The position numbers were made by a program, and so were the translations under genes. The notes under the pieces are model-generated. The model was not told the DNA's origin, made no database searches, and saw only the letters and a program-made list of their open reading frames with translations. Shown here piece by piece: positions 53,872 through 62,882 of a DNA stretch of 64,000 nucleotides (its first letter is position 1; each line of letters begins with the position of its first letter). This DNA comes from a phage: the sequence record PX994957.1; one strand, 5' to 3'.

Positions 53872-55929
53872 CTACATTTTGAACTTTTTAGACATTCCGT
53901 TAATGTTAACCAAAGAAGCTAAGATTTGAGAAACTTCGTTTTCCTCTTCTTTTGATTCTTCTACAAGGAATTGATTAAATCCAGCCATTGGACGAACTTC
54001 ACCAGTTTCCATTAGATGGTCGCCATCATATACTGATTCTTCTAATTGTTCAGAAGGAGGAACGATTGTACCTTCGATTAGATACTTGTTATAAGCAGTT
54101 TCTTTCATAAAGTAAGTACTTACTTTATTAATCTTCAGTAAAATTCCACGTGGTAGAATAACTTCAGCTTCTGATGGAAATCCTGATAAATGACCCGGAA
54201 CGATAACTTTAACTCGTTCAGCTCCTTTAATTACCATACCCACGCTAGTTTCAGCATCTTCATTAGCATATGTAGAATGACTACCCATATGCATCAAATC
54301 TTCTGCATCAACGGAACCTTCTCCTTCACCAGAAAATACTGCTCCGGAATCATCTAAGGCCATATAATTTTTACCATACTCACCAAAGATATTTGGTTTA
54401 AGTGATGTAGATACGAAGTTCTTGAAATAGAACATTTTATTTTCAATGTTATGACGCAAAGTTTTAAAAGTAACTTCTTGTCCACGGTAAAGTGTAGTTC
54501 CTGGAGGAAGAACTGAACCTTTAGCAAACGCAGAATCCATAGTCTCGATGTGCTTAATAGCGCGCTCCATGTATTCTTCACGTGTAGAATCAGGTTTACC
54601 TAAAAGGAATGAGTTCATTTCAACATACGAATCTGCACAATAATCTTCAATTACATCAGATTCAGCCTGAGTCAATCCTTTTGGAGTTACTTCAGTGCTT
54701 GCATATTCATACGCCTGAGCAGCGGATTCATCAATTAATTTATAAATGCCATTCATGACAAATTGAATAATAGCTGTCTTTTCATCTGGCGTAGCTTTAG
54801 AACCTTTAACTAAATCATTGACAATTTTCTTAATAACATCAAAGCTATTAGAAATATTAATGTCAGCAAGATCGCTTAAAATTTTATCAGTTTTATAATC
54901 AAAAAATTCTTTATTCTTTAAATATTCTTGAGAACTTTGATATGTTATATCGCTCTGCAACTTGATAGATGGATCACGTAAACGTGCATGGGCTAATGCA
55001 ATATGATTTCGGAAGCTTTCTAGTTCATAATCACTAGATTTAAAACGAGAAGCACTCCTCATACCACCGATAGCTCCTTTGCCGAAGTTTGAACCAATCT
55101 GAATAACGCCAGAGTTCATTGGTCCTTCTGCTTTATATACCGGAACTTTAGATTCAAACTCTTGATATTTCTTAGCAGCAAAGCTATCACCCTGAAGTGA
55201 AGCATCAACAGTAGAATATTGAGCTTGTGCTGCTAATCGACGACTAATTTTAGTTTTCTGAATAACAGCTTGATCCGTACGCTTATCATTTTCTAAAGCA
55301 ATAGAAGCAGCAACTGCGACAGCTTTAGGAACAGCATTACCTGTTTTAACGTCTACATAAACATCACCGACTTTCGATTCAACTTTTGTGAATAACTCAG
55401 TTGAAATAGGAGGTACACCTGGAATGTCTTCTAAATTGGCATTTTTACGGTAAACCATAATATATGCATATTTCTTATCATAGTCCCAGATTTCCTTTAA
55501 AAGAACATATCGACCTGCTCCTTTAGTACGTACTAAACGGTCAGCAATAACTTGCATTTGACGAGCAGCGCCATTTGTTTTACTTTTTAGTACGCGGAAT
55601 AGGCATGCATCAATTTTATACTGTTTCATTGTTTGAAGAGCAGTATCAAAAACAGCATTAATGACGCCAATTGGATTTCCACCCAAGTTTTTAAGCTTAA
55701 CTAATGATAATTTTTCATTAACACCTATCATTACGATATGCATCATTTTGTCGCCTGGCTTAACGTTTTTATTCGTATCACCGCCAGAGGTGTATGTACA
55801 AAATCTAAATCCAGGAAGCACGCTTTCTTCACCGGCTTGAATAGCAAAAATTTGTGGTATTTTATGCTTAGGATTTAAGTTAACAACCGGCGCCGAAGCG
55901 CCGTCAAATAATTCTGTAATAAGTTCCAT
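53872..55929 (-). CDS. Alt-like ADP-ribosyltransferase, paralog 2
   Basis: 685 aa; shares N-terminus MELITELFD... and catalytic motifs with adjacent gene: R (LYRGQ), STSL, SEAEVILPRG. Confidence 0.8.
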   Translation of the reverse strand: MELITELFDGASAPVVNLNPKHKIPQIFAIQAGEESVLPGFRFCTYTSGGDTNKNVKPGDKMMHIVMIGVNEKLSLVKLKNLGGNPIGVINAVFDTALQTMKQYKIDACLFRVLKSKTNGAARQMQVIADRLVRTKGAGRYVLLKEIWDYDKKYAYIMVYRKNANLEDIPGVPPISTELFTKVESKVGDVYVDVKTGNAVPKAVAVAASIALENDKRTDQAVIQKTKISRRLAAQAQYSTVDASLQGDSFAAKKYQEFESKVPVYKAEGPMNSGVIQIGSNFGKGAIGGMRSASRFKSSDYELESFRNHIALAHARLRDPSIKLQSDITYQSSQEYLKNKEFFDYKTDKILSDLADINISNSFDVIKKIVNDLVKGSKATPDEKTAIIQFVMNGIYKLIDESAAQAYEYASTEVTPKGLTQAESDVIEDYCADSYVEMNSFLLGKPDSTREEYMERAIKHIETMDSAFAKGSVLPPGTTLYRGQEVTFKTLRHNIENKMFYFKNFVSTSLKPNIFGEYGKNYMALDDSGAVFSGEGEGSVDAEDLMHMGSHSTYANEDAETSVGMVIKGAERVKVIVPGHLSGFPSEAEVILPRGILLKINKVSTYFMKETAYNKYLIEGTIVPPSEQLEESVYDGDHLMETGEVRPMAGFNQFLVEESKEEENEVSQILASLVNINGMSKKFKM

Positions 55930-55932
55930 GAT

Positions 55933-58026
55933 TTATCCTTGAACGAACTTGTAAGGCATGTTTGTAATATCTATGCAAGACGCAATAATTCCAAGAGATG
56001 ATTCTACTTTCTGTTTAATATTTGATGAAACAAATGATGCAAAGTCAACTCTGTCTTCTATTTCAATATCACCTGTCATTGCAACCAATTCACCAGTTTC
56101 CATTAAATGGTCTCCATCATAGATTACCGATTCGGTGAGCTCTTCCGTGGTCATAACTTCAGCTTGAATGAGTTTTGTATTATTAGATGTTGTTCCGTCA
56201 TTATTAGAAGCATCAGTTATTTTATTAACCTTGACCATCAATCCGCGTGGTAGAATAACTTCAGCTTCTGTTGCTATTCCGAGACTTCCTGGATATACAA
56301 CATTAACTTTATGAGCTCCATCAATTGCCCATCCTATTTGAACTTTAACATATTCAGGATTTTCTTTATACGCTCTTATTTCGTTTGGATTAATAGTTAT
56401 TCCTTCTTCATTTTTATCAACTGTTAATTCGTTACGAGCTTCTGGTTCTAAAAGACCAATACCAGCATGTGTGATTCCAAAACGTCCAAAAATGATAGGA
56501 GTTAAAGAAGTAGATACAAAATTTCTGAAGTAGAACACTTTATTTTTAACTAACGCTTCATATATAGGAGCAGTCATACTTTGAGCACGATAAACTGTAA
56601 TGCCTTCTGGTATACGGTCACCATTTTCAAAAGCTGAATCTAAGTTATTTATAGCAGATTCAATTTCTTTTTCACTCATTACATCGTATCGTTCTGGATT
56701 GTAACGACCTAAAAGAAGATTATTGATGTCAGTATATCCTGAACCGCAATATTCTCTAATGCCACGCTTTTGTGATGGAGTATATTTAGAACCATCGCGG
56801 GCAATAGTAATATCAATCATTGGACCAGCACCAATTCCAGAAAAACTGTAAATCATTCGTTTGAGGAATTTAGTTTTTGCTGCGTTCCAGGAATTTTTAG
56901 TTATTTCTTCCCAGACTTCATCTGGTTGTCCTTTACGATTTTTATTATGATTAGCAAGCCATTTATCTTTATAATCTTCAAAGAATTGATTTACAGCTGC
57001 TGCGTATTTCTCTAAACATTTTATTGAAGTAGTTGGTTCATTTTTAATTGCATTAAAAATTACTTCTTTAATTTTTTCTGAAACTTCACCGACTTGACTC
57101 ATTGGAAAGAATTTATAATCATAGTGAAGTTCATCTGCCGTTCCTTCAGCAATAATTTTTGCTGCCTTTGTTTTAGAAGCTAATGAATTAATTCCAATTT
57201 TCATTTCTTCTGCTTCGGGAATTAAAGGTGCAGTAGCTGGTTTATTAAAATTAGCTGCTGTAGATTCATACTTCTGGAATAATTCACTTTCAAATCTAGA
57301 AGATTCCAATGACTGACTTTGTGCAATTGCTCTACGGGAAATTTTAACTTTAACGATTACGGCTTGGTCAGAACGTTTATCATTTTCTTGTGCAATAGAT
57401 GCAGCAATTGCCTCATTTTTGGTTACTTGAGCTCCAGTATCTTTATTGATATAAACATCACCGACCTTCGATTCAACTTTAGTAAAAAGCTCGGTGCTAA
57501 TTTCTGGAACTCCTGGAATGTCTTCTAGTGATACATTTTTACGATGTATAAGAATATATGCATACTTTTTATCGTAATCCCAGAGTTCCTTAAGAAGGAC
57601 GTATCTGCCACCTGAACGACTGCGGATGAGTCTATCAGCAATAAGTTGAATTTGTCGAGCTTGACCGGCGGTTTTAGACTTAAGAATACGAAGCATGCAG
57701 GCATCAATTTTATATTGACGCATTGTTTGCATTGCAACAGTAAAAACTGAATTGATATAATTAATCGGGCTTGGACCAAGACCTTTTAATTTAGCAATTG
57801 AACCTTTAGCAGTTAATGTAAAAGGAACAATGTGCATCATTTTATCGCCCATCTTTAAATCACGATTAGTATCACCTCCAGATGTATAGGTACATAAACG
57901 AAAGCCTGGTTGTTCAATTGCATCATCAACATGAACTGAAAAAATTTGTGGTATTTTCTTCTTTGGATTTAAGTTTGTAATCGGAAGAGTAGTATCTTCG
58001 TCAAATAATTCTGTAATAAGTTCCAT
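55933..58026 (-). CDS. alt: Alt ADP-ribosyltransferase (packaged internal head protein)
   Basis: 697 aa; R-S-E motifs VYRAQ, FVSTSL, TEAEVILPRG; position upstream of gene 30. Confidence 0.85.
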   Translation of the reverse strand: MELITELFDEDTTLPITNLNPKKKIPQIFSVHVDDAIEQPGFRLCTYTSGGDTNRDLKMGDKMMHIVPFTLTAKGSIAKLKGLGPSPINYINSVFTVAMQTMRQYKIDACMLRILKSKTAGQARQIQLIADRLIRSRSGGRYVLLKELWDYDKKYAYILIHRKNVSLEDIPGVPEISTELFTKVESKVGDVYINKDTGAQVTKNEAIAASIAQENDKRSDQAVIVKVKISRRAIAQSQSLESSRFESELFQKYESTAANFNKPATAPLIPEAEEMKIGINSLASKTKAAKIIAEGTADELHYDYKFFPMSQVGEVSEKIKEVIFNAIKNEPTTSIKCLEKYAAAVNQFFEDYKDKWLANHNKNRKGQPDEVWEEITKNSWNAAKTKFLKRMIYSFSGIGAGPMIDITIARDGSKYTPSQKRGIREYCGSGYTDINNLLLGRYNPERYDVMSEKEIESAINNLDSAFENGDRIPEGITVYRAQSMTAPIYEALVKNKVFYFRNFVSTSLTPIIFGRFGITHAGIGLLEPEARNELTVDKNEEGITINPNEIRAYKENPEYVKVQIGWAIDGAHKVNVVYPGSLGIATEAEVILPRGLMVKVNKITDASNNDGTTSNNTKLIQAEVMTTEELTESVIYDGDHLMETGELVAMTGDIEIEDRVDFASFVSSNIKQKVESSLGIIASCIDITNMPYKFVQG

Positions 58027-58082: not shown

Positions 58083-58268
58083 TTAATAGAGAGCTAAAAG
58101 AGTACGATATACTTCAAACTTTGGACCTTTTTCATATGGATCAAATCTTTCCGTGAATTCATCATATGCTAGTTTATCTGGGAATTCAAGAATAACCTGC
58201 GATACCGCAGTGGAAACATCTCCACCTTCTTTTTGAGCCACGACAATTGTTTCTAAGTAAGCTTTCAT
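58083..58268 (-). CDS. hypothetical small protein
   Basis: 61 aa ORF between alt and gene 30, 4-nt overlap with ligase stop. Confidence 0.45.
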   Translation of the reverse strand: MKAYLETIVVAQKEGGDVSTAVSQVILEFPDKLAYDEFTERFDPYEKGPKFEVYRTLLALY

Positions 58269-59728
58269 AAACCAGTTACCTCATGAAAATCGCCAAATAC
58301 ATCTTCGAACGTATTAGCTTTAGTTTTATCTTCACGTAAACGAATTGCAGTTGGAAGAAATAGCTTAACGTAATCAGTACGTCCATCTAATTTTACCCAG
58401 CCGTTGCATTCGCACTCTAGAATTTTTCCAATATAATAATTTTGGTTTTCCATAATGCGAGTACGGTCAAGTTCATGTGATTTTACGCCGGCTTTATCTT
58501 TTAAGCCTGAACCAGCATTTACTTTAATTTTTCCACACTCTGATTCAAGAATGAAACCACCTGCTTTAGTAGGGTCTTTACGGTGAGGATAAATTCCTAC
58601 AATTTTTAAATCAACATCAATTACTTCTTTAAATTTATAAAGATTTTTTGAACGAGCATTTTCCCATAATCCATCGATATTTTTGAGAATAATACCTTCA
58701 AGACCTTGGTCAATATACTTTTTATAAATTACCTTAGCTTCATCTAGGTTATTTACTATCTGGTTTTCAATTAAAATTACTTTATCATAGCCTGATGTCA
58801 TTTGTTTTAGTTTAGAAAAACGTACATCATATTTTAAACGAAATGCTGGAAGACCATATATTTCTACTAATGGAACATAGTCCCAGACCTGAAACTTCAT
58901 GCATTGTGCTTCTTTTTCAGAAATGGTTCCCTTTAAAGATTTATTAGCGATTCCATTAGAAGTAGTACGTGATTCAGCTACTTCGGCGAATTCTTTAGCT
59001 TTACTAATTTCAGGATAAGCATCAAAAAGAAAATCTAGGCCTTCTGGTTCCTTTTCAACTTGCTCATGGTATACCAATTCGCCATCAATTAACACACCTT
59101 CTGGATGAATCTGGCGAGCTTCTGCAGTCATTTTGATTAACTCTTCCTTGAGAAGATCTAATCCTAGATATTCATTACCAGCTCGTGATAAAAGACGAAC
59201 ATCATCTAATTCATCACCTCTGACTTCAGCAAAGCACCGAGCTCCATCAGCTTTTAACTGGGCAAAAGCTGGAAATTTGATATTCTTATTAATGCCTTTT
59301 TCATCATAAGAACTTGCCAGCATTTGAGGTTGTTCAGGAATTAAACCTGGCCAAACTTTGTTTGCAATAGATACTGATGCACCACATTCAAGGTCTCGCA
59401 TCATCACCCGACGCAAAACTTCAACATCATCTTTTTTACCGTCAGCAATATATCCAGTTAATTCCTCAATTGCCGCATTTCCGGTCAATTTCCGAGTAGC
59501 TAACGTGAATTCAATGAAGTCAAGCATATCGGTAAGAGTCAACATTCCAAAACTCTGGGTAGCAATATCAGGTTTAGGCCATTTCTTGATATAATACTGT
59601 AACCCACGGGAATAAGTCAGACGATATACTCGTTTAAGCAATTCATTATCTTTATTCTTTTCAAGAATTGCTTGCTTCTGCTTAGTTGAACCAATAGATG
59701 CTATTTCGTTCAGAATTTTAAGAATCAT
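58265..59728 (-). CDS. 30: gp30 ATP-dependent DNA ligase
   Basis: 487 aa; adenylation motif KADGAR; recognised as T4 DNA ligase. Confidence 0.95.
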   Translation of the reverse strand: MILKILNEIASIGSTKQKQAILEKNKDNELLKRVYRLTYSRGLQYYIKKWPKPDIATQSFGMLTLTDMLDFIEFTLATRKLTGNAAIEELTGYIADGKKDDVEVLRRVMMRDLECGASVSIANKVWPGLIPEQPQMLASSYDEKGINKNIKFPAFAQLKADGARCFAEVRGDELDDVRLLSRAGNEYLGLDLLKEELIKMTAEARQIHPEGVLIDGELVYHEQVEKEPEGLDFLFDAYPEISKAKEFAEVAESRTTSNGIANKSLKGTISEKEAQCMKFQVWDYVPLVEIYGLPAFRLKYDVRFSKLKQMTSGYDKVILIENQIVNNLDEAKVIYKKYIDQGLEGIILKNIDGLWENARSKNLYKFKEVIDVDLKIVGIYPHRKDPTKAGGFILESECGKIKVNAGSGLKDKAGVKSHELDRTRIMENQNYYIGKILECECNGWVKLDGRTDYVKLFLPTAIRLREDKTKANTFEDVFGDFHEVTGL

Positions 59729-59994
59729 TGTTCATCCTTTAGAGTTTGGTTTACAGCTCTATTATAAATCAATTCATCATTAAGCTCAGTCAAAGACCTG
59801 TGATACGTGGTTCTAACTTTATTTCCTTGCATCCAGTGCTTGACGTAAATGAAACCTTGCTCTACACATTTTTTAAAAATTCGTTCGTCTTTTTGAGCTC
59901 GGAATTCTGGATTGCATCTAAAAAATTGATTTACGTGACCGTAATCACGTGTAGTATTACCTTCATTTTCATAAATAGTGTGAACGACAAACAT
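59725..59994 (-). CDS. hypothetical protein (30.1-like)
   Basis: 89 aa, synteny. Confidence 0.55.
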   Translation of the reverse strand: MFVVHTIYENEGNTTRDYGHVNQFFRCNPEFRAQKDERIFKKCVEQGFIYVKHWMQGNKVRTTYHRSLTELNDELIYNRAVNQTLKDEQ

Positions 59995-60830
59995 TAGAAT
60001 GCTCCTTGGAAAATATTATCACCGCTAGTAGGTCTATTATACAAATACTCTATGCCACCAGGTTTAATATAGTTCCATGTCTGAAACGGATGCGTCTGAT
60101 ATGGATGATATAGATTATAAGGATTAAATCCAGGAGTTCTCCAGGTAGTGTTCCAAGGAAAAGAATCGTTTTTAATCATCTTTTCAATTACATCTTTTAC
60201 AGCTTTTTCACTATCAAAACTTTCTTTATTTTCCTTCGATGGAAAAAGCTTATTCTCTACATCATTCCATGTATAAACTCGCTGTGCAGTTTTTGGAATA
60301 CTGTCACGCTCCCCTCGAGCCATCCAATAAACAGGAACATTTAATATTTCACTTGCATGATCGCAGTGGTGAGCGAGATCGTCAATATAACAAATTACGT
60401 TATATTTCTCTTTTGCCTTTTTGAACAACTCTTCTTTTGAAGAATCATGACCACACATCAATACTTCTGAGAAGGCACCAGGAAAAAGAGCATTCAAATT
60501 AAATTGACGATTCAGCAGAGCGTCAATAGAATCACCCAATGCTGTAACAGCTACAAAATTATAATCTTCTTTTAATTTGTTAATTACACATAGAGCATCT
60601 TTATATGGAGACAAATAACGAATAAAATCTGAACGATTATACTTTTCGATTAATTTAACACCAAGTTCTTCATCGCAATTAAAGAGCTTACCAGGAGAAA
60701 TAAATTTTTCGTCCTGAATCATTTTTAAAATATGTTCCAACGGAAGATTATATTTTTGGGCAAAATAAGGAAGGCCCGATTGCCAGCTTAAACACACCCC
60801 GTCAATATCAGTCAAAATAGTAGGCTTCAT
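59994..60830 (-). CDS. HAD-superfamily phosphatase-like protein (30.2-like)
   Basis: 278 aa; N-terminal HAD motif I ILTDIDGV. Confidence 0.6.
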   Translation of the reverse strand: MKPTILTDIDGVCLSWQSGLPYFAQKYNLPLEHILKMIQDEKFISPGKLFNCDEELGVKLIEKYNRSDFIRYLSPYKDALCVINKLKEDYNFVAVTALGDSIDALLNRQFNLNALFPGAFSEVLMCGHDSSKEELFKKAKEKYNVICYIDDLAHHCDHASEILNVPVYWMARGERDSIPKTAQRVYTWNDVENKLFPSKENKESFDSEKAVKDVIEKMIKNDSFPWNTTWRTPGFNPYNLYHPYQTHPFQTWNYIKPGGIEYLYNRPTSGDNIFQGAF

Positions 60831-61291
60831 AGAGAGTCTCTTAATAGGTTTAACACATCAATAAATTCAGCTTCGGTTAGTATTGTATCATCTTTTGTTA
60901 GACCACTAGCCATGCTATGCTTCAAAACTTTTCCTTTCGAGGCTAGTAATGCATCACGAAAGCCCTTGTTTTGAATCGCTGCTTCAAAATATGCATTTGT
61001 GTACAACTCTTTCCACGCTGGTGAGTATCTTGAAAACGGAACTCCAAGCCAGAAGAGGGTCCCACGGTCCTGAGCTCTAGCATAAGACCTTCCAGCTTGT
61101 TGGGCGGCAAGCCCGGATAACCCAAATACACGACGTTGCTGTTCAACATTTTTCACCTTACATCCTTGGAGAAATCCTTCAAGACCTCCAAATTGGATAC
61201 CATTCATAACAAAAGGCCATTGGGCGAAATTACTTAATGCACACGATGGCCATCTAAAATTGCTTCTAATCTCTAACTCAGGCATTTTCAA
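60827..61291 (-). CDS. NADAR (YbiA/DUF1768)-like domain protein (30.3-like)
   Basis: 154 aa; LSNFAQWPF...G...E.F.Q..K and GLSGLAAQQAGR resemble E. coli YbiA motifs. Confidence 0.6.
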   Translation of the reverse strand: MKMPELEIRSNFRWPSCALSNFAQWPFVMNGIQFGGLEGFLQGCKVKNVEQQRRVFGLSGLAAQQAGRSYARAQDRGTLFWLGVPFSRYSPAWKELYTNAYFEAAIQNKGFRDALLASKGKVLKHSMASGLTKDDTILTEAEFIDVLNLLRDSL

Positions 61292-61484
61292 TACTTATAA
61301 TTTCAACATCAGCCCAATGACCATAGCAAGGAAGACGAAATTCAACTGGCCAGTTAGGGTCCTTTTCTAATATAATAGACTTAACTTGTGGTTCTTCATG
61401 TTCATCAGTATATGGATTTTTATCTGTTACTTTATATGTGACCTTAATGTACTGAATTCCAAAAATCTTATTAATTATATTCAT
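61278..61484 (-). CDS. hypothetical protein
   Basis: 68 aa ORF in 30.x cluster. Confidence 0.45.
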   Translation of the reverse strand: MNIINKIFGIQYIKVTYKVTDKNPYTDEHEEPQVKSIILEKDPNWPVEFRLPCYGHWADVEIISIENA

Positions 61485-62439: not shown

Positions 62440-62772
62440 TTATTTTACTACTTTCCAGTGCTTCATGTCAAGTTTACCGACTTTTTTCATCTTCTCAATT
62501 AAGCGTTCGGCACGTTGGCGAGCTGTAACATAATACCATTCACCTAATTCATTTTGTTCAATTTTTCCAACGATTACTGTATTCAATTCATAAATCCAAC
62601 CAGTAAAGAAATTATGAACTTGAATTGTAAAGGTGAAATCTGTTCCCATACCTTCTGTTGTTTCTACTTCAATAATATCACCTTCAATTGCCATTAAGAA
62701 CCACATAGTTTCATCATATTTACCATTGAAGCATTTAGTCTTAACTGCAGCGTTCAGATTAATCGTTTTCAT
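62440..62772 (-). CDS. hypothetical protein
   Basis: 110 aa ORF with GGAG SD and early promoter module upstream. Confidence 0.5.
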   Translation of the reverse strand: MKTINLNAAVKTKCFNGKYDETMWFLMAIEGDIIEVETTEGMGTDFTFTIQVHNFFTGWIYELNTVIVGKIEQNELGEWYYVTARQRAERLIEKMKKVGKLDMKHWKVVK

Positions 62773-62852: not shown

Positions 62853-62878
62853 TAAAAAAGGACTCCCGAAGGAGTCCT
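62853..62878 (-). terminator. rho-independent terminator
   Basis: hairpin aggactcc-cgaa-ggagtcct; A6 on plus = U6 after hairpin on minus. Confidence 0.7.
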
Positions 62879-62882
62879 TAAC

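Follow-up and report, generated by a model that had tools for sequence, protein, structure and literature searches.

Organization of the locus

The window, a stretch of 64,000 nucleotides from phage sequence record PX994957.1, belongs to a Tequatrovirus (T4-like) genome. Two minus-strand ORFs singled out in a preliminary description of this DNA, 59994-60830 and 60827-61291, are indeed present and carry the motifs quoted there, namely ILTDIDGV at the start of the former and LSNFAQWPF...GGLEGFLQGCK together with GLSGLAAQQAGR in the latter. They encode the counterparts of the T4 proteins gp30.2 and gp30.3, with 97% identity in either case. The start of gene 30.3 has to be corrected, as 61291 is merely the first in-frame TTG of the ORF, and the ATG at 61285 fits the T4 annotation and yields a protein of 152 aa. 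Because of the 97% identity to T4 and the homologues recovered by tblastn (1,511 phage records for gp30.3; 1,440 for gp30.2, the matches listed for the latter being T4-like phages), both genes are far removed from chance ORFs. Together with 30.4 and 30.1 they form a single tightly packed run on the minus strand: the stop of 30.4 and the start of 30.3 overlap by 8 nt, the stop and start codons of 30.3 and 30.2 interlock as ATGA, and those of 30.2 and 30.1 as TAATG. The genes are:

61278..61484, minus strand: gene 30.4, context, directly upstream of 30.3 (ORF layout)
60827..61285, minus strand: gene 30.3 (adfN), 152-aa phage-type NADAR, predicted DNA guanine-ADP-ribose glycohydrolase (97% T4 identity over 152/152 aa; PF08010; hhalign; AF2 fold)
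60240..60830, minus strand: gene 30.2, HAD phosphatase domain with helical C1 cap, residues 1-197
59994..60239, minus strand: gene 30.2, C-terminal tail, residues 198-278 and stop (predicted disordered, aromatic/Pro-rich)
59725..59994, minus strand: gene 30.1, DUF3045, context (PF11243, E 3e-64)
58265..59728, minus strand: gene 30, ATP-dependent DNA ligase, context (PF01068)
55933..58026, minus strand: alt, Alt ADP-ribosyltransferase, context, outside the mechanism discussed here (PF03496, E 1e-37; 71% identity to T4 Alt)
53872..55929, minus strand: second, full-length Alt paralogue, context (PF03496, E 8e-20; 41% identity to T4 Alt)

An Rfam search over 57-64 kb of the window returned no matches, an NCBIfam search likewise yielded none, and no PADLOC model matched at the locus. 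A promoter scan gave 22 matches against 21.8 in shuffled sequence, that is, no excess; one of the 22 was a strong match.

gp30.3 as a phage-branch member of the NADAR superfamily

The gp30.3 of the window is identical to its T4 orthologue at 147 of 152 residues, and the five substitutions (S2P, D28N, I53V, Q114L and I125M) leave the known catalytic positions untouched. It matches the Pfam family PF08010 (E 1e-69) and, taken alone, shows no match to PF08719 (NADAR) in a plain Pfam scan. The relationship between these families emerges from profile comparisons: the gp30.3 family alignment matches the PF08719 YbiA-family alignment with 95.9% probability (hhalign, E 6.2e-9), three of ten gp30.3 family members themselves match PF08719 (best E 0.003), and some YbiA homologues match both models. 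The top PDB sequence match of the gp30.3 family profile is E. coli YbiA, through the SNFA...E..Q..K motif, and the alignment places E36 and K43 of gp30.3 on E48 and K55 of YbiA. In agreement with this, the AF2 model of gp30.3 (pLDDT 87, pTM 0.84) adopts the YbiA fold, a helical core with small β-hairpins at its flanks, and its only Foldseek matches in the PDB at probability 1.00 are YbiA (2b3w), PnNADAR (8bau) and the G. lovleyi NADAR (8bat). The residues central to the assignment are as follows:

61157..61180, minus strand: NADAR catalytic motif E36-G-F-L-Q-G-C-K43 in T4 numbering (codons verified; E and K invariant in the gp30.3 family alignment)
60917..60919, minus strand: His123, last β-strand of gp30.3 (codon checked; invariant in the gp30.3 family alignment)
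60830..60874, minus strand: C-terminal helix of AdfN, about residues 138-152, intact, TEAEFIDVLNLLRDSL (sequence and AF2 model, helix 140-153)

NADAR families are defined by the residue in the last strand, which is His in phage NADARs, Glu in YbiA and Asp in DarG1 (PMC11125620, PMC12945103). In gp30.3 this position is H123, within the tetrapeptide LKHS, and gp30.3 is thus a member of the phage branch of the superfamily. YbiA (PF08719) is its best match both in structure (Foldseek E 1e-4, TM 0.68) and in sequence profile, with the SNFA-WP...E-F-Q-K motif in both proteins at about 16% identity. The two nevertheless differ in the last-strand residue and in specificity, as YbiA also removes ADP-ribose from cytidine, whereas the T4 NADAR acts on G-ADPr only (PMC11125620, PMC12945103). 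An N-glycosidase activity on riboflavin intermediates has been associated with further NADAR proteins (PMC11125620, PMC12945103).

Comparison across Mosigvirus-like loci (L010-L019) had suggested extreme conservation of gp30.3, resembling recent horizontal transfer, with 92-97% identity against 64-75% for its neighbours. This proved to be an artefact of a multi-member query; direct comparison gives an unremarkable 83% aa and 80% nt identity.

AdfN and escape from DarTG1

The T4 gp30.3 has been published as AdfN, the anti-DarT factor NADAR (Johannesman et al., Nat Commun 2025, PMC11825919). Three papers report that it hydrolyses guanine-ADPr on DNA (PMC11825919, PMC11125620, PMC12945103), and in vitro it removes G-ADPr from DNA and does not remove T-ADPr or C-ADPr (PMC11125620, PMC12945103). 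AdfN is both necessary and sufficient for the escape of T-even phages from DarTG1, and T4 AdfN is impaired by E36A, by K43A and by a C-terminal truncation of the RB69 type (PMC11825919). The RB69 frameshift allele encodes a protein shorter by 15 residues that has lost the C-terminal helix and is inactive, and the phage is DarTG1-sensitive (PMC11825919). Under DarTG1, transposon insertions in T4 30.3 are lost (log2FC -7.25), and those in 30.4 are partly depleted (log2FC -1.79, adj p 0.014; HIDEN-SEQ preprint 10.1101/2025.11.20.689424), the latter probably through a polar effect on 30.3. Hence the suggestion that this NADAR counters host DNA toxins of the DarT type has direct experimental backing in the 97%-identical T4 protein (PMC11825919, PMC11125620, HIDEN-SEQ preprint).

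At this level of identity the chemistry of the T4 protein is expected to carry over to the window. In the mechanism that would follow, the host toxin DarT1 would ADP-ribosylate the N2 of guanine in the infecting phage DNA and block its replication; AdfN, by means of the conserved Glu36 and Lys43 and the family-specific His123, would then hydrolyse the N-glycosidic bond between ADP-ribose and guanine, freeing ADP-ribose and restoring the base. It would thereby act as an orphan antitoxin in the form of a minimal, single-domain NADAR enzyme. E36, K43 and His123 are all present in the window gp30.3, which ends in TEAEFIDVLNLLRDSL as T4 does and is of full length at 152 aa. Since the allele is complete including the C-terminal helix, the phage should be DarTG1-resistant. 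It is an orthologue of T4 AdfN of equal length, flanked by 30.4 and 30.2 with the same overlaps; the two have the catalytic residues and the helix in common and are distinguished by the five substitutions.

A functional parallel is DarG1, the NADAR antitoxin of DarTG1 systems (G. lovleyi 8bat, E. coli C7 NADAR; Schuller et al. 2023, PMC11543638). It has the same fold as gp30.3, carries out the same reaction as the T4 protein, the hydrolysis of ADP-ribose from guanine N2 (PMC11543638), and uses an equivalent Glu/Lys pair, E88 and K95 in the E. coli C7 NADAR. In contrast to DarG1, gp30.3 has no DarT partner, consists of the core domain without an N-terminal extension, and bears His rather than Asp in the last strand (PMC11125620, PMC12945103); furthermore, T4 gp30.3 is unable to replace DarG1 in uninfected cells. 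In the window the NADAR gene adjoins no DarT1, its neighbours being 30.4 and 30.2 and the ARTs nearby being of the Alt type (PF03496). The gene is an orphan antitoxin-like gene, as published, and not a DarTG1 operon. A comparable case is T4 AdfM (Tk.4), the macrodomain anti-DarTG2 factor, likewise a phage-encoded orphan antitoxin-like hydrolase that erases DarT marks on DNA (10.1101/2025.11.20.689424), although it has an unrelated fold, is specific for thymidine-ADPr and lies at a different locus.

Iyer et al. 2022 proposed, from a comparative-genomic argument (PMC9503650), a role for phage NADARs according to which gp30.3 would chiefly degrade small immune signals derived from ADP-ribose rather than DNA adducts. 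Given that the T4 orthologue has been directly shown to de-ADP-ribosylate DNA and has a DarTG1-specific phenotype, and that small-molecule activity of this orthologue is unreported, such a primary role appears very unlikely.

The preliminary description also suggested a writer/eraser module from the proximity of the two ART genes; in such a pairing the NADAR would reverse the marks set by the neighbouring Alt transferases. The two PF03496 genes are indeed transcribed in the same direction at a distance of 3-7 kb. The targets of Alt, however, are host proteins, among them the alpha subunit of RNA polymerase (Iyer et al. 2022, PMC9503650), whereas the substrate on which T4 NADAR activity has been demonstrated is guanine-ADPr in nucleic acid, and neither T- nor C-ADPr is removed (PMC11125620, PMC12945103). 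The genomic context argues in the same direction: ligase, 30.1 and alt.1 stand between NADAR and Alt, and in a Klebsiella phage locus (L002) where 30.3 has moved elsewhere, Alt is still found beside the ligase. As T4 alt insertions are moreover neutral under DarTG1 (log2FC -0.01; HIDEN-SEQ preprint 10.1101/2025.11.20.689424), we regard a pairing with Alt as extremely improbable.

gp30.2 is a predicted HAD phosphatase

The HAD assignment made for gp30.2 from its motif I holds throughout the domain. All four HAD motifs (I DxDx[TV], II S/T, III K, IV DD) are present:

60795..60809, minus strand: HAD motif I, D8-I-D10-G-V, nucleophile and acid/base Asp (codons checked; conservation)
60543..60545, minus strand: HAD motif II, Thr96 (nearly invariant; codon checked)
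60435..60437, minus strand: HAD motif III, Lys132 (invariant; codon checked)
60378..60383, minus strand: HAD motif IV, Asp150-Asp151, Mg2+ ligands (D151 invariant, D150 nearly; codons checked)

Every one of 45 homologues has D8, D10 and G11, and D8 and D10 are likewise constant in 46 distant relatives; T96, K132 and D150-D151 are invariant or nearly so across the 45 close and 46 distant relatives. The AF2 model, with pLDDT above 90 for residues 1-195, shows a Rossmann-like core with a C1-type helical cap inserted after motif I (helices 16-86), and the structure has 114 HAD fold matches. As with gp30.3, the protein by itself escapes standard models: no HAD or NT5C model in Pfam and no HAD model in NCBIfam matched gp30.2. 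The direct Pfam check proposed in the preliminary description thus recovers neither PF08719 for the one protein nor a HAD family for the other, which taken literally speaks against both assignments, and the deeper sequence and structure comparisons still uphold both.

Among the 46 distant relatives, 16 match PF00702, 16 match PF13419 and 17 match PF06941 (NT5C). The first matches of the family profiles are 5'(3')-deoxyribonucleotidases, namely 2jao (E 0.018) and, over the full length, 3bwv (E 1.9e-6), the latter being the only significant profile-to-PDB sequence match, and the alignment reveals a DxDGVLxx[W/F]xSGL signature common to gp30.2 and cdN. The NT5C enzymes (mouse/human cdN 2jao and 2i7d; mdN 1q92; S. 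epidermidis 3bwv) combine, like gp30.2, a HAD core with a four-helix C1 cap, have the corresponding DxDGVLxx[F/W]xSGL signature, and give the best Foldseek TM/rmsd values. The identity is limited to 14-21%, with gp30.2 below the Pfam NT5C threshold, and gp30.2 departs from NT5C in its family-specific invariant residues R108, N111 and S67 and, in Tevenvirinae, in an 80-residue disordered tail. We conclude that gp30.2 is a true HAD phosphatase, as predicted, and nearest to the 5'(3')-deoxyribonucleotidases (NT5C). It would be a Mg2+-dependent phosphomonoesterase with a helical C1 cap and, being most like the 5'(3')-deoxyribonucleotidases, would most probably dephosphorylate a small molecule resembling a (deoxy)nucleoside monophosphate.

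No functional study or assay of gp30.2 was found in the literature searched, which did not extend to the Miller 2003 T4 genome review. Insertions in T4 30.2 are neutral in LB and M9 (HIDEN-SEQ preprint 10.1101/2025.11.20.689424), and the gene is not required under laboratory conditions. T5 Dmp, a dispensable, phage-encoded 5'-deoxynucleoside monophosphatase, illustrates that such activities are used by phages. Dmp is not among the tblastn matches listed, which are T4-like phages, and its biological logic need not transfer, since host nucleotides are excreted by T5 but recycled by T4-type phages. The genomic context of five distant relatives comprised three contigs below 1 kb, one fusion protein in an uninformative neighbourhood and one T4-like ligase/UvsY locus; the N-terminal parts of fused homologues had no Pfam match.

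Residues 225-278 of gp30.2 have pLDDT below 50 in the AF2 model. Tail-bearing homologues conserve the motif G-G-I-E-Y-L-Y-N-R-P-T, and the tail is absent from homologues of roughly 200 aa, about half of the family being tail-less. A disordered tail with a conserved short motif of this kind may tether gp30.2 to a partner. The GIEYLYN of gp30.2 was compared with the T4 C-termini SLDFLFG of gp43, SLDFLYEAND of gp55 and TLDFLL of gp33. Clamp binding by the tail is at most a weak lead, with the last hydrophobic position varying among homologues (Y/L/N/K/D/S).

Among HAD enzymes, a cap usually marks those acting on small molecules, and polynucleotide phosphatases generally do without one. This distinction bears on the idea that gp30.2 heals nucleic-acid ends as a 3'-phosphatase, in the manner of the T4 Pnk HAD domain, and so readies nicks for the adjacent ligase. 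Gene order could be read in its favour, in that 67 of 79 related loci have a ligase less than 700 bp downstream of their 30.2 homologue, as could a weak PHROG match to polynucleotide kinase (phrog_415, E 0.004) and the resemblance of G-I-E-Y-L-Y to the clamp-binding [ST]LDFL[FYL] C-termini of gp43, gp55 and gp33. However, gp30.2 carries the helical cap after motif I, its best sequence matches are nucleotidases and not PNKP, the final position of the clamp motif is unconserved with the tail missing from about half of the family, and adjacency is weak evidence because T4-like phages largely inherit their gene order. An end-healing function is accordingly improbable, and a nucleotidase-like phosphatase remains the preferred assignment.

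Do 30.3 and 30.2 form a module?

The proposal that the NADAR and HAD genes form one nucleotide-repair module was examined in the same 79 related loci, anchored on the 30.2 homologue. In 36 of them, below half, the distance from 30.2 to a 30.3 homologue is at most 1.7 kb, and in 19 the two are adjacent on the same strand; 40 have no NADAR within 6 kb of 30.2, and none was found near it in the loci inspected from Jiaodavirus and Ceceduovirus. Among the neighbours of 30.2, it is instead the ligase that is most conserved. The order 30.3-30.2-ligase is kept as far afield as Acinetobacter Twarogvirinae phage KARL-1. This occurrence, the adjacency in a fraction of the loci and the ATGA overlap would suit a two-enzyme module in which gp30.2 is the additional T-even factor on which AdfN depends in vivo and would process its product or recruit it to replicating DNA, and AdfN is in fact fully active only in T-even infections, for which its authors propose an additional T-even cofactor. 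Such a module is largely refuted by transposon sequencing of T4 under DarTG1, in which 30.2 insertions are neutral (log2FC -0.12, p 0.61, 71 TA sites; HIDEN-SEQ preprint 10.1101/2025.11.20.689424) against the log2FC of -7.25 for 30.3. The chemistry also speaks against it, since the NADAR reaction regenerates guanine without leaving a phosphomonoester for a phosphatase to act on (PMC11543638). Taken together with the many loci without a nearby NADAR, these results make gp30.2 a highly improbable partner of AdfN.

gp30.2 is not needed for AdfN function, and the evidence excludes it from DarTG1 escape, leaving other systems or hosts as candidates; the ATGA overlap and the conserved order leave room for a functional link that the DarTG1 screen in K-12 would not see. 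We consider it very likely that gp30.3 is AdfN and gp30.2 a HAD phosphomonoesterase, two independent early-gene products that lie side by side through inherited gene order. The identity, fold and motifs of both are observed directly, the AdfN chemistry is taken from the T4 literature, and the substrate class of gp30.2 is a prediction.

Implications

The orphan NADAR of T-even phages, AdfN, which erases DarT1 guanine ADP-ribosylation from the phage's own DNA, is already known from the literature, and the early genes 30.3 and 30.2 very probably stand next to each other because of inherited gene order. The modest question that remains concerns the role of gp30.2, a widely conserved predicted HAD phosphatase with a nucleotidase-like active site and a conserved tail motif. 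It may represent a phage-wide clade of HAD nucleotidases, spread over some 1,440 sequenced T4-like phages and, at 50% identity, about 1,450 clusters, that serves as a conditional counter-defence or nucleotide-pool enzyme removing an NMP-type signal of danger or immunity, or a non-canonical nucleotide with toxic effects, and whose conserved C-terminal peptide G-I-E-Y-L-x-x-Q/R-P-T could tether it to the replication machinery in Tevenvirinae; we regard this as a speculative and rather unlikely scenario. For the phage of the window, the practical consequence of its intact adfN allele is a predicted resistance to DarTG1.

Gene layout of the 30.3-30.2 region

The segment 59700-61500 matches 686 phage records by megablast, with a best identity of 99.3%, and these records are T4-like phages of Escherichia, Shigella and Yersinia in which genes 30.4, 30.3, 30.2, 30.1 and DNA ligase are annotated. 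Tequatrovirus genomes (e.g. ECML-363, Sf23, RB51 and RB68) are 98-99% identical over 24 kb around the site, and every gene between about 53.9 and 63.6 kb is on the minus strand. The two open reading frames described in a preliminary description as NADAR-like and HAD-like are present together with the motifs quoted for them, and comparison with annotated T4 (NC_000866) identifies them as follows:

60827-61291, minus strand: open reading frame of gene 30.3
59994-60830, minus strand: gene 30.2

The start of 30.3 equivalent to that of T4 is the ATG at 61285, giving 152 amino acids, the TTG at 61291 being merely the first in-frame start codon. The products are identical to their T4 counterparts at 147 of 152 (gp30.3) and 270 of 278 (gp30.2) positions, and the junctions are as in T4 (an 8-nt overlap of the 30.4 stop and 30.3 start, ATGA at 30.3/30.2 and TAATG at 30.2/30.1). 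Homologues detected by tblastn, in 1,511 phage records for gp30.3 and 1,440 for gp30.2, show near-identical genus distributions.

Upstream of gene 30.7 lies a near-consensus sigma-70-like promoter (62442-62471, minus strand; TTGACA-18-TAAAAT, 11/12), with a terminator-like GC-rich hairpin and T-run just upstream of it (62858-62879, minus strand). Judged by sequence, the two together would bound a transcription unit running from 30.7 to ligase; promoter-like matches overall were not commoner than in shuffled sequence in the promoter scan. Between alt and ligase, the small gene at 58083-58268 (minus strand; alt.1 in T4) gives a match of E 7e-28 to PF24647, a recent Pfam family named "Phage blade protein".

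gp30.3 is a NADAR protein

In a plain Pfam scan gp30.3 matches PF08010 (Phage_30_3; E 1e-69) and not the NADAR model PF08719; therefore the literal test proposed in the preliminary description, a search with the NADAR model, would have misfired. The NADAR assignment is upheld by profile, hhalign and fold evidence despite this absent match. The top PDB sequence match of a profile of ten family members is E. coli YbiA, aligned on SNFA-WP...E-F-Q-K; three of these ten match PF08719 individually, and certain YbiA homologues match both models. Alignment of the family by hhalign to 25 YbiA/PF08719 sequences gave 95.9% probability (E 6.2e-9, 98 columns). The AlphaFold model (pLDDT 87, pTM 0.84) has exactly three PDB matches of probability 1.00, namely YbiA (2b3w) and the NADARs of Phytophthora (8bau) and Geobacter lovleyi (8bat), all remaining matches having E values of about 1 or worse. 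Glu36, Lys43 (T4 numbering) and His123 are invariant across the family. An apparent extreme conservation of gp30.3 (92-97%) in Mosigvirus-like loci proved to be an artefact of multi-query best hits, the true identity being 83%.

Within 30.3, the interval 60943-61149 (minus strand) is the counterpart of the out-of-frame internal ORF 30.3' annotated in T4; it has 68 codons, as compared with the 75 of T4. Eight of 13 relatives have ACG, ATT or ATC where the ATG would be, the frame nonetheless being open over 75 codons in 11 of the 13; 30.3' is probably not a conserved gene.

The proposal that the NADAR counters DarT-type toxins matches published findings on T4 AdfN. Guanine-N2 ADP-ribose produced by DarT1, the toxin of the DarTG1 defence, is specifically hydrolysed by NADARs, which restores guanine, releases ADP-ribose and leaves no phosphomonoester on the DNA (Schuller et al. 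2023; PMC11543638). T4 gp30.3 removes G-ADPr and not T-ADPr in vitro, and a His in the last strand is the defining mark of phage NADARs (Toxins 2024; PMC11125620); cytidine-ADPr is likewise not removed (Toxins 2026; PMC12945103). Johannesman et al. (2025; PMC11825919) found by mapping that T2 and T4 owe their DarTG1 resistance to gene 30.3, renamed adfN, which is necessary and sufficient for resistance in T-even infections; function is lost with E36A, K43A or an RB69-type C-terminal truncation, and AdfN neither detoxifies DarT1 in uninfected cells nor rescues T5 or Bas25. In a T4 transposon-sequencing preprint, the mean for 30.3 insertions was 261.0 and fell to 0.7 under DarTG1 (log2FC -7.25, adjusted p 0; 10.1101/2025.11.20.689424). 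As the window's AdfN allele has its full length and none of the catalytic residues is missing, function should transfer from T4, and removal of G-ADPr from DNA is predicted for it. The methods of PMC11125620 give the cloned protein as "T4 phage NADAR (gp30.3; residues 1-208)", as against the 152 residues encoded in T4 and in the window, a discrepancy perhaps due to tag numbering or to the use of another accession.

gp30.2 is a capped HAD phosphomonoesterase

No HAD model of Pfam or NCBIfam is matched by gp30.2, which PHROGs places in phrog_420, labelled unknown function. The HAD assignment is nevertheless borne out by catalytic motifs, fold matches and the Pfam matches of its relatives. Across 45 aligned homologues, drawn from T4-like phages that infect many different hosts, D8, D10 and G11 (motif I), T96/A97 (II), K132 (III) and D150/D151 (IV) are invariant or nearly so, as are the family-specific W16, S18, S67, R108 and N111. 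An exhaustive profile search recovered 1,457 clusters at E<=1e-3; in 46 distant relatives D8, D10, K132 and D151 are still invariant and T96 nearly so, with Pfam matches to NT5C (17), PF00702 (16) and PF13419 (16). The AlphaFold model is confident over residues 1-195 (pLDDT >90) and disordered over 225-278; Foldseek returned 114 PDB matches at E<=1e-3, and all 50 of those listed belong to the HAD superfamily. Among the matches listed, the best TM and rmsd values are those of the 5'(3')-deoxyribonucleotidases of cytosol and mitochondria and of the deoxyribonucleotidase-like 3bwv of S. epidermidis; sequence profiles likewise favour nucleotidases, giving E 0.018 for 2jao and E 1.9e-6, over the full length, for 3bwv. 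The invariant W16, eight residues past the nucleophile, aligns with Phe18 of cdN, which we take to stack on the base in the cdN and mdN structures, and W16 may occupy this base-stacking position. We conclude from this that the product of 30.2 is a HAD phosphomonoesterase bearing a cap and that it probably acts as a nucleotidase.

The otherwise variable, disordered C-terminal tail holds a motif, G-[TG]-G-[IL]-E-Y-L-x-x-[QR]-P-T (60030-60059, minus strand; residues 258-267), conserved in homologues of several genera; homologues of about 200 aa lack the tail. The motif bears a superficial likeness to the C-termini with which T4 gp43, gp55 and gp33 bind the gp45 clamp ([ST]LDFL[FYL]), and this could at best hint weakly at clamp binding. 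A metagenomic protein of 302 aa (P0037) joins a gp30.2-like portion to a PF11243 domain (gp30.1, DUF3045), and is either a genuine fusion of the adjacent 30.2/30.1 genes or an artefact of read-through or assembly.

Linkage and genetics of 30.3 and 30.2

The preliminary description also proposed that the NADAR and HAD genes form a module. Their co-occurrence is little informative because both are near-universal in the group. For 79 IMG/VR loci with gp30.2 homologues, we determined where homologues of gp30.3, gp30.1 and ligase lie.

Arrangements around the 30.2 homologue in 79 loci
Ligase no more than 700 bp downstream: 67 loci
NADAR directly adjacent upstream: 19 loci
NADAR 100-1,250 bp upstream: 17 loci
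NADAR absent within 6 kb: 40 loci

Annotated genomes agree with these counts: the order 30.3-30.2-ligase is found in Acinetobacter phage KARL-1, and Klebsiella Jiaodavirus and Aeromonas Ceceduovirus have 30.2-(small gene)-ligase with no NADAR nearby. In Vibrio Schizotequatrovirus TCU-VP03-AIR1 (locus L005, 8001-8573) a gp30.2-like HAD gene (37% identity) adjoins nicotinamide phosphoribosyltransferase and radical-SAM genes rather than ligase; the same record has a second match elsewhere. Gene contexts of distant gp30.2 homologues were uninformative.

The decisive evidence is the T4 transposon-sequencing table (10.1101/2025.11.20.689424), in which only 30.3 and, more weakly, 30.4 (log2FC -1.79, adjusted p 0.014) are depleted under DarTG1 among 30.4, 30.3, 30.2, 30.1 and alt. 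Insertions in 30.2 are neutral (log2FC -0.12, p 0.61, 71 TA sites), as are those in 30.1 and alt (both -0.01); in LB, moreover, the 30.2 gene is not essential, with 72/72 TA sites hit, and in M9 insertions in it are neutral. Since the end of 30.4 and the start of 30.3 share 8 nt, the partial depletion of 30.4 is most simply read as a polar effect on 30.3, though 30.4 may make a real contribution of its own to DarTG1 escape. Given the neutrality of 30.2 and the lack of a phosphomonoester after NADAR hydrolysis, a NADAR-HAD module is rejected for DarTG1, in keeping with the 40 loci missing a nearby NADAR, and the adjacency is best explained as inherited gene order.

A writer/eraser pairing of the NADAR with the Alt ADP-ribosyltransferases is without support from conserved linkage or genetics. 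Alt is a protein ADP-ribosyltransferase packaged in the virion (PMC9503650), and T4 NADAR activity has been shown only for guanine-ADPr in nucleic acid (PMC11125620, PMC12945103). Both ART genes of the window are of the Alt type (PF03496), full length and in tandem, where T4 has one alt gene and the decayed remnants alt.-1, alt.-2 and alt.-3:

55933-58026, minus strand: ligase-side Alt, 71% identical overall to T4 Alt; a mosaic, near-identical over residues 1-245 and about 585-697, with a diverged middle including the ART domain
53872-55929, minus strand: second Alt copy, 41% identical to T4 Alt

On the whole, the pairing of NADAR-like and HAD-like genes is correct as an observation. As a member of a known superfamily the HAD gene 30.2 is ordinary, and no phenotype was detected for it; the most interesting guess, that on the NADAR, is correct, yet the anti-DarT role of the T-even NADAR is already established knowledge, published as AdfN.
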